Assembly (NCBI RefSeq): GCF_003790525.1
Contig: NZ_CP033635.1
Source of the DNA: Escherichia coli
GTDB lineage: Bacteria; Pseudomonadota; Gammaproteobacteria; Enterobacterales; Enterobacteriaceae
DNA: 64,000 nt
Reading direction: 5' to 3' (one strand)
Below the pieces are notes generated by a model that was given only the letters and a program-made list of their open reading frames with translations, did no database searches and had not been told where the DNA came from. Both the position numbers and the translations under genes were made by a program. Shown here piece by piece: positions 60,530 to 61,851 of this stretch (the first letter of the stretch is position 1; each line of letters begins with the position of its first letter).

Positions 60530-61851
60530 CTTGTTGATGAAAGGTGCAGAAACGACGAAACCCCGCACTGTTGGAGCAGTAACGGGGCTTCTAACCACCA
60601 ACGATAGAAAGCGTATCGAGGTAGCTATGTTAAATCATACCACACACCCGCAAGGGCGGGACCCGCACAACCTGAATAAATACATCTGGCGTTTTATCGC
60701 CCTGAGCACAGCACAACCACGCGTTATTACCATCGGGGCCACCAGCGAACAGGAAGCCCGCCAGCAATCCCCGACTGGCTGGGTGATGGTATTGGCCTCC
60801 AGATTTCATCATCGCTGTTTGTTTTTTGTCTGTCTCTCCTCGGGGTATGGGGTTGTGCCGTTCCAGCGTATGCGGGGCCGTTCACTGATGAAGCGCTCAA
60901 GCGGGAAATTATCGGATGGCGCGGGGGGCCGTACCCGTCGTTCCCGCCTCCGCTGGCGTACCACGCTGGCTTCGGTAATTTCCCCTGATTCGTTTATTTT
61001 CATAAAGAGTTACCTCCGTGCTCATCTGCTCTGGCGTTTTCTGTTTCTGATGAAGACTTACAGCGGTAGCGGCGTATCTTATCTTAAGATTTGGTTTAAT
61101 TTCTCGTGTCTGGCTTTAATGACGGCGCGTAATAATATCTGTCGCTGCTTTGTGTTTACGTCCAGAACTGTGGGGGATAATATGGATTTGTTCATGGTGC
61201 TCACCTGTAATGCATTGCGTCGTGATGCCTCATATCACGGCGGCGGTTATCGTTTTGTTCGGATTCGTCCCCTGATGAAATCCTCAAGCGGAAAATGTTC
61301 AGGGCGAGGTAATTCAGGAGGGACAGGGTTATTACTCATGCGCTCACGTTCCCTTGCGGCGCGTGCAGCATTCAGCTTTTGCAGGAGCACATCAAACGGC
61401 ACCCCCTTATCATTCATGGTCCCCCCTGTATATCCGTTGTTAACTGATGGTTACAGGTGCATTTTTCGCACAAACTATTTAATCAACACATCCGACCACA
61501 TTATCAGAGAGCCGGAATATACAGGGGCAATAATCCCGCATTTGCTGGCCTACGCACAGCTTACCGCTGATATGGCACTGAATGAGGCCAAAGCCATCCT
61601 GATTGCTGATTGTGAATATGGGGTTATGCGTGATGATCGTTTTAATGCCCTGAAACAGGAATTTGATGGCACACCGGAAGATACAGATATTGCGCTGTTA
61701 TGTGTTGCTGACATGGTAAAAGCTGCATGTTTTTTACTGGAAACCGCCGAACATTCAGGAACGGGTAGCGATATTCTCAATATTGCGTCGGACTATGCTG
61801 AATATGTGGCAGAGGCGCGTTACAGAAGAAAATTCCAGGAGGTGGTTAGCC

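Follow-up and report, generated by a model that had tools for sequence, protein, structure and literature searches.

An Icd-like gene in a phage-satellite island

The window, the whole stretch of 64,000 nucleotides of Escherichia coli DNA that we analysed, ends in a phage-satellite (PICI/P4-like) island that takes up its final 6 kb and is inserted beside cspD/yljB. The annotation of the island was taken from an identical copy in strain TUM1886 (PGAP). It lists an integrase (57993–59231), an AlpA-type regulator (59651–59860), two small leftward genes on the minus strand (a hypothetical gene, WP_001064590.1, at 59999–60190 and a YlcI/YnfO family gene, WP_000201463.1, at 60248–60427), a rightward 477-amino-acid 'host cell division inhibitor Icd-like protein' (60426–61859, plus strand), a frameshifted hypothetical gene, and then a DUF4222 gene (62056–62355) followed by the primase. 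This arrangement resembles the order found in Gram-negative PICIs and P4-like satellites, that is int, alpA, leftward ylcI/ynfO-like, Icd-like, DUF4222, primase or RepA helicase, SSB and PerC. The resident leftward array carries intrinsic terminators at 59907–59888 and 60238–60212.

The core of the Icd-like gene lies at 60627–60811 on the plus strand and begins with an ATG at 60627; 4 nt before it stands the Shine-Dalgarno sequence GAGG. We call its frame frame 0. This is the plus frame that a first-pass annotation of the window had described as open upstream of a run of six thymines (TTTTTT, 60822–60827), and both the run and the frame are present as described. The NCBIfam model NF033153 matches the frame-0 ORF with 53.7 bits against a cutoff of 25 (residues 19–60), and phrog_6196 matches it with E=1e-35 (residues 1–61, profile positions 27–87 of 93). 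Judged by these matches, frame 0 from ATG 60627 is a genuine Icd-like gene; it resembles the P1-type proteins (NF033153, phage_ICD_like; Pfam PF10554, Phage_ASH) in scoring well over the family cutoff. The family homology stops at residue 61 (about 60810–60811), before the T run. At the DNA level, 60450–60800 is matched at 90–95% identity, up to about 60800 and no further, in about 1,300 of 5,426 complete E. coli genomes.

In islands that lack the insert described below, the protein closes with ...A(A/G)RIRQ(E/G)V.HA, 6–11 residues further on, and its stop codon overlaps the next gene. The tail IRQ(E/G)V.HA, directly followed by the stop, is present in L003, L005, L016 and L098–L101; the window has FHHRCLFF... 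instead. The short Icd-like form (about 57–75 amino acids, ending 8–11 residues after A[AG]R[IL]) does not occur in the window, where the first stop is at 61859. As in the P1 immI operon (c4-icd-ant), the Icd-like ORF heads a rightward operon and, in the insert-free islands, its end overlaps the next gene; unlike P1 immI, the locus yielded no c4-like RNA in an Rfam search. Two further features set these genes apart from P1 Icd: in the window the tail of 8–11 residues and the stop are replaced and the ORF continues for 344 codons, and the Icd frame of these islands extends open for some 250–600 codons on the upstream side as well. A literature search on the Icd-like genes of PICIs returned nothing.

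A 685-bp replacement block at a mosaic junction

The T run sits 11–40 nt inside a mosaic junction of the PICI/P4-like satellite island. This left recombination junction spans 60783–60811: copies that bear the insert are all identical rightward from 60783 and diverge leftward of it, and 60811 is the last position with similarity to the insert-free islands L003 and L005. BLAST similarity to insert-free islands, having stopped at 60811, is back at 61497, inside a gene of the phrog_2512 family. The 685-bp replacement block between these points (60812–61496; counterpart, L005 2391–2500) displaces about 110 bp: from the Icd-like gene it removes roughly the last eight codons and the stop, and from the gene that follows, the start with the first 33 codons. 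What remains of that next gene is its C-terminal two thirds (61497–61859, plus strand), which is in frame with the block and lacks its native start and first 33 codons. Its product still matches phrog_2512 with E=2.3e-50 over profile positions 31–153 of 154; the intact gene of L005 encodes 142 amino acids.

Among the 5,426 complete E. coli genomes, nine carry the block, at ten places in two island backbones, and it occurs in three further IMG/VR contigs; no copy falls below 99.7% identity. The block and its right flank are near-identical in the two backbones, one at the cspD/yljB site and the other at the tRNA-Pro/yejM site, a likeness to the modular mosaicism of PICI/P4-like satellites. The block had no blastn match among phages and plasmids, and an Rfam search of 59200–62400 gave no match at E≤1. 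No leftward terminator was found in 60300–61900, nor a consensus promoter for the leftward array within the block. Its minus strand is 56% purine, as are sense strands here. In one IMG/VR copy, L008, a G run of the block at about 61319 carries a 1-nt indel.

PICI-like islands normally hold their leftward small-gene array between alpA and icd, as L016 and L017 do. By contrast with these two, the island in the window has a second array downstream of icd, truncating two genes. The block probably comes from a different island lineage, where it belonged to the regulatory region, and in the window it replaces the Icd end together with the 5' end of the next gene. This documents a rare module exchange, by which the replication operon received a second array of leftward mini-genes.

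Leftward small genes of the block

The block holds three leftward units, all on the minus strand and in one common reading frame, each with a Shine-Dalgarno-like sequence and an ATG. Unit A, ORF64 (60809–61003; MKINESGEITEASVVRQRRRERRVRPPAPSDNFPLERFISERPRIRWNGTTPYPEERQTKNKQR), is the 64-amino-acid minus-strand ORF that the first-pass annotation had listed, and its GGAGGT Shine-Dalgarno sequence (61012–61017) indeed stands 8 nt before the ATG (61003–61001). Unit B (61022–61204) consists of ORF41 (61079–61204) and a decayed tail, with in-frame TAA codons at 61079–61081 and 61058–61060. It is a pseudogenised copy of a 67-amino-acid gene that is intact in L016 (tblastn, 5143–5307, E=3.6e-9) and in L017 (966–1130, E=1.7e-8). 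Given this decay, the array may be eroding in its present position. Unit C, ORF56 (61247–61417; MNDKGVPFDVLLQKLNAARAARERERMSNNPVPPELPRPEHFPLEDFIRGRIRTKR), has a GGGGG motif 4 nt before its ATG.

A DNA repeat of 20–31 nt links the units. It lies at 60879–60909, with further copies at 61266–61296 and 61047–61066 (repeat families D1 and D3), and encodes FPLE(R/D)FI..R.R. Local alignment gives a score of 32, compared with 16.7 ± 2.1 for shuffled sequences (z about 7), and some of the differences between copies are silent on the minus strand (TTC/TTT, and CGG/CGA/AGA for arginine). Units B and C are also alike around the start codon, marginally (score 22, shuffle mean 16.5).

Direct searches with the block's products returned little. 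ORF64 had no homologue sharing words with it among 5.8 billion proteins, and its motif pattern had no confirmed relative in 100,044 species-representative genomes; the IMG/VR scan found identical copies only, as it did for ORF56 and for the three-sequence motif alignment. ORF56 matched only itself among the 5.8 billion proteins (an E. coli hypothetical protein in public databases), with no divergent relatives, and ORF64, ORF56 and ORF41 gave nothing meaningful against Pfam, NCBIfam and PHROGs. We then searched the frame-0 translation of the block against 1.84 billion representative proteins and obtained two matches, the long ORFs P0005 and P0007 of other islands. Their contigs, L016 and L017, carry homologous DNA between alpA/antA and icd, with leftward tandem small genes whose products end in FALEAFVEKYPRRLK, FALEDFLKQH, FALDNFLKS or FPIEDFLSKRPRR, in addition to the intact 67-amino-acid homologue of unit B. 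In the leftward genes of other islands the motif recurs at the protein level with different codons, as FALEAF, FALDNF, FPIEDF and PPLEVF.

From eight such proteins, with ORF64 and ORF56 left out, we built a family profile. In hhalign, ORF64 matches it with 78% probability and E=1.7e-5 over the FPLERFISERPR motif (25 columns), and ORF56 with 80% probability and E=1.3e-5. The first-pass annotation had asked whether the minus-strand ORF has homologues: relatives exist at the level of motif and profile, but close homologues do not occur among the 5.8 billion proteins. ORF64 has both the C-terminal motif and the basic N-terminal helix of the family. AlphaFold2 predicts helices at residues 9–23 and 34–41 of ORF64 (mean pLDDT 68.5, 82 for the motif block), but with a pTM of 0.23 the model is not strong enough to search for similar folds. 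By motif and profile, we place the units of the block in a family of small, basic, uncharacterised proteins whose shared C-terminal motif is F[PA]L[ED]xF[ILV]..R. The family has no Pfam, NCBIfam or PHROG model, and the present comparison documents it as an unannotated family sharing a common motif.

Members usually lie between alpA/antA and icd, with an intrinsic terminator beside alpA; the block is sited differently, downstream of icd. The resident hypothetical gene WP_001064590.1 (59999–60190) ends in ...FALDPFVEKYPRRLK and belongs to the same leftward motif-bearing type. Its neighbour, the YlcI/YnfO gene (60248–60427), resembles ORF64 and ORF56 in orientation, size class and relative frame within its leftward unit, but shares no sequence similarity with them; the C-terminal motif of ORF64 and ORF56 resembles that of 59999–60190 instead. 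The relative frame is the same in all 32 leftward genes scored, ORF64 and ORF56 included, such that third codon positions face third codon positions of the rightward frame. Copies of ORF64 and ORF56 are all at least 99.7% identical, and dN/dS was taken from orthologue pairs of other family members, where it is 0.13–0.52 in the leftward frame, 0.27–0.58 in the plus frame that shares its wobble positions and 0.76–1.5 in the codon-aligned plus frame, the counterpart of the plus-strand peptide described next. ORF64 and ORF56 are probably expressed. PGAP leaves ORF64 uncalled in every annotated copy examined.

The plus-strand peptide that had drawn attention to this region lies opposite ORF64. The first-pass annotation described a neighbouring plus frame, ending in ...SSSLFVFCLSLLGVWGCAVPAYAGPFTDEALKREIIGWRGGPYPSFPPPLAYHAGFGNFP and a stop, without an ATG, and this holds: neither ATG, GTG nor TTG gives an ORF of at least 30 amino acids in it. 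This frame-2 peptide (60821–60988, plus strand; it includes GPFTDEALKREIIGWR) has no start codon and ends at a TGA at 60986–60988, two nucleotides to the right of the position first given (60984–60986). It tiles the same codon positions as ORF64, both being congruent to 2 mod 3, and frame 2 is open because it is codon-aligned with ORF64. In this respect it behaves as shadow (antisense) ORFs do, and of the non-coding frames in the window, the codon-aligned antisense class contains the fewest stops per codon (0.0265). The stretch previously called signal-peptide-like is a hydrophobic segment internal to a start-less frame, with no ATG, GTG or TTG upstream in frame. Among 5.8 billion proteins the frame-2 peptide matches a single entry, an identical ORF cut off by the edge of a contig; the peptide gave nothing meaningful against Pfam, NCBIfam and PHROGs, does not match the profile of the leftward family and is unlike the native Icd tail. 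From these comparisons, the frame-2 peptide mirrors ORF64 codon for codon on the complementary strand and should not be taken for a gene, in agreement with the earlier suggestion that the apparent switch could be an artefact of the antisense ORF at 60809–61003.

The apparent frame switch and the stop-free rightward frame

At the T run, frame 0 reads TTT TTT (Phe-Phe), and the minus strand reads ACA AAA AAC (Thr-Lys-Asn) near the C-terminus of ORF64. Beyond the run, frame 0 stays open for 344 more codons, to a TGA at 61857–61859, which the first-pass annotation missed. Frame 0 is not closed after the run, and therefore no switch of frame is forced there. Both frames that had been described are real; the switch between them rests solely on the other frame looking more protein-like. 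We consider it very probable that there is no frameshift at the T run, and that the impression of one is an illusion arising from the mosaic junction together with the shadow of ORF64. A mosaic junction combined with a shadow frame can imitate a frameshift, and this would explain why pipelines call 'Icd-like proteins' of 446–595 amino acids or 'frameshifted' genes, calls that are best not read as real domain architectures.

Frame 0 belongs to a far longer open stretch. From its first ATG, just past the alpA stop and preceded by a Shine-Dalgarno sequence, a stop-free rightward frame runs for 662 codons (59871–61859, plus strand). It passes antisense to all the leftward genes, crosses the Icd-like gene and the block, and closes only where the phrog_2512 gene has its native stop. 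Here the likeness to shadow ORFs ends: frame 2 is ordinary, but frame 0, which is the wobble-aligned antisense frame, is far longer than shadow statistics allow. The wobble-sharing antisense frame of the window's real genes contains 0.0345 stops per codon. When the codon order of the leftward frame was shuffled, about 5.4 stops were expected in each interval, and the probability of a stop-free frame was 0.001 for 59873–60625 and 0.0011 for 60812–61495. The block itself is stop-free because its frame-0 translation is homologous to part of the open frame of L016: it has a 48%-identical counterpart (E=4.6e-6) inside the 644-codon open frame P0005 of that island.

The same openness is found well beyond E. 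coli. In 80 unselected IMG/VR loci with a related Icd-like gene, a median of 290 open codons precedes the Icd motif; 67 of these loci have an open stretch of 150 codons or more, and 56 have one of 250 or more. Each of the four species-representative genomes found (Cedecea davisae, Pantoea formicae, Hafnia psychrotolerans and Klebsiella pneumoniae) has 241–299 open codons. The remaining five frames across the same intervals contain 4–34 stops. In about 15% of loci the open frame is absent or out of phase with Icd, and 12 of the 80 have a closed frame. The depletion of stops antisense to leftward genes is statistically strong and taxonomically broad, and it suggests selection for uninterrupted rightward translation.

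How might the T run and the repeats otherwise be read? A real frameshift, either a pseudogene left by a T7-to-T6 deletion or a programmed −1 slip that would give the Icd-like protein a hydrophobic extension to 60988, is very improbable. It has in its favour that frame 2 is open from before the run to 60988, that a hydrophobic stretch followed by an AYA|G-like site is encoded there, and that T6 would permit an A-site tRNA-Phe to re-pair. However, a shift is not needed where frame 0 is open, the openness of frame 2 comes from its codon alignment with ORF64, and the frame-2 peptide has neither a family model nor a homologue. The zero-frame context, ttG TTT TTT Gtc, is not an X XXY YYZ heptamer, and the P-site tRNA would have to re-pair on GTT. 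The 83 nt downstream (60828–60910) lack a stimulatory structure, folding more weakly than their shuffles (MFE −19.1 kcal/mol, shuffle mean −26.2, z=+2.49). Nor does the frameshifted pseudogene of the first-pass annotation fit the gene's history: Icd homology is finished before the run, with a native tail of only about eight residues to follow, and the end of the gene was hit by the 685-bp replacement, not by an indel. The chance that the run reflects a sequencing or assembly error, another option raised earlier, is negligible. Homopolymers are error-prone, as the G-run indel of L008 may recall, but every one of the ten aligned sequences has T6, whether it stems from an IMG/VR contig or from an E. 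coli genome, and the genomes were produced in different laboratories and countries; among the aligned copies, 60783–61082 contains no variable site. T6 is invariant in all independent copies and is therefore not a sequencing error. It is also improbable, if a little less so than a frameshift, that the 20–31-nt motif is a non-coding, protein-binding or iteron-like element and that the short ORFs are not genes. Its three copies are direct repeats, 162 and 225 nt apart, whose DNA is conserved, in contrast to the remainder of the units, where divergence has erased the similarity. Against this, leftward genes of other islands encode the same motif with different codons, the motif always lies near the C-terminus of an ORF with a Shine-Dalgarno sequence and an ATG, and dN/dS in those orthologues is below 1.

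A more serious rival, which we regard as unlikely but well short of negligible, holds that frame 0, run on from the Icd ATG or from ATG 59871, is the sole functional reading of the block, and that ORF64, ORF41 and ORF56 are inert relics of the donor. The 228 codons without a stop across the block (shuffle P as given above), the block's being in frame at both ends and its counterpart in the P0005 open frame all agree with this reading, unit B has decayed already, and PGAP calls frame 0 a gene. A codon model trained on the host likewise places plus frame 0 above ORF64 and ORF41, but the same model is poor on nearby annotated leftward genes; we gave this codon-usage classifier little weight, since it was conflicting on short island ORFs and misjudged annotated leftward genes. 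On the other side, the peptide read from frame 0 has a high content of Arg, Ser, Cys and Phe and no family match, and the lower dN/dS is always that of the leftward frame in family orthologues. All three leftward units have kept a Shine-Dalgarno sequence and an ATG, and the purine skew favours the minus sense. Moreover, running on in frame 0 is compatible with expression of ORF64, shared wobble positions being the arrangement most permissive for dual use.

If the apparent switch is an illusion, as we favour, ribosomes that start at the Icd ATG would read on in frame 0 to 61859. The block would have inherited its open frame from the donor island and then been joined in phase at both ends. In the immI operon of P1, translation of icd is coupled to expression of the downstream ant, and blocking icd translation leads to Rho-dependent termination. 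By analogy with this icd–ant coupling, we tentatively propose that selection keeps the frame stop-free on its way past the operator region and the small-gene array as well as the ylcI/ynfO-like gene and the leftward terminator hairpins, and that it is translated as a sequence-indifferent 'bridge'. Ribosomes would then cover the rightward transcript where it runs opposite the block of antisense genes and thereby shield icd and the replication genes from Rho-dependent polarity. We hold this to be possible rather than probable. A C>G (rut-like) skew was looked for on the rightward strand and not found. If stop depletion does reflect obligatory translation, it would be a simple means of carrying transcription past a block of antisense genes.

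The open frame also crosses the complement of a leftward intrinsic terminator, which on the minus strand reads GGCGACC-loop-GGTCGCC and then TTTGTTTT. A conserved 'KTKAT' at the start of the translation was considered as a sign of protein conservation and rejected: it equals the complement of this leftward terminator, whose stem shows compensatory changes between species.

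The stop-free frame and its Icd-like domain

Antisense to the leftward genes, the rightward frame that contains the Icd-like gene has no stop over hundreds of codons (59871-61859 on the plus strand; also in L003, L004, L005, L016 and L018-L101, loci of related islands). Upstream of the Icd motif, the open stretch has a median length of 290 codons across 80 loci and spans 241-299 codons in four other species. By chance, a stop-free Icd frame is expected at about 1e-3 per independent locus. Relative to this frame, all leftward genes occupy one common frame.

RefSeq/PGAP calls 'host cell division inhibitor Icd-like proteins' of 446-595 aa here (60426-61859; also the homologous CDSs of L001, L004 and L012-L015), of which only ~60 residues are Icd-like; the same region is alternatively annotated as 'frameshifted' fragments, for example in B771, another insert-bearing strain. 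All these annotations are calls of the stop-free frame that extend too far. A second Icd-like domain lies in the related L016 island (5889-6392, plus strand), where it occupies the C-terminal end of the following gene (called at 5928-6392, 154 aa; longest ORF 167 aa). Icd-like domains with long N-terminal extensions can thus occur in tandem.

Terminator-like hairpins and sequence repeats

Immediately after the alpA stop, an intrinsic-terminator-like hairpin for the leftward genes (59888-59907, minus strand) reads GGCGACCGCCCCCGGTCGCC followed by TTTGTTTT. In islands of Klebsiella, Hafnia and Pantoea its stem differs by compensatory changes; the 'KTKAT' of the long plus frame is the translation of the hairpin's complement. 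A second such hairpin is found at 60212-60238 (minus strand). The interval that separates the leftward ylcI/ynfO-like gene from the Icd ATG holds three copies of the palindrome GTGTT(C/T)AACAC (60478-60531), which resemble operator sites; a weaker copy, AATCAACAC, sits at the right end of the mosaic block (61480-61489). A perfect 12-nt inverted repeat (ACAAAAAACAAA, 60442-60453; TTTGTTTTTTGT, 60818-60829) joins the T-run region to the stretch upstream of the ylcI/ynfO-like gene and may have arisen by chance.

Apparent frame disruptions

The hypothetical gene that follows the long ORF (61852-62051, plus strand) is annotated as frameshifted in the identical RefSeq copy, and an intact 66-aa version (WP_032289535.1) is present in related tRNA-Pro islands. 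One viral-contig copy (L008 / L018, IMGVR_UViG_2537561979_000008) carries one additional G within a G-run of ORF56, equivalent to window position ~61319. Such an insertion would disrupt ORF56 as well as frame 0; since the data set is an older one, an assembly error may account for it.
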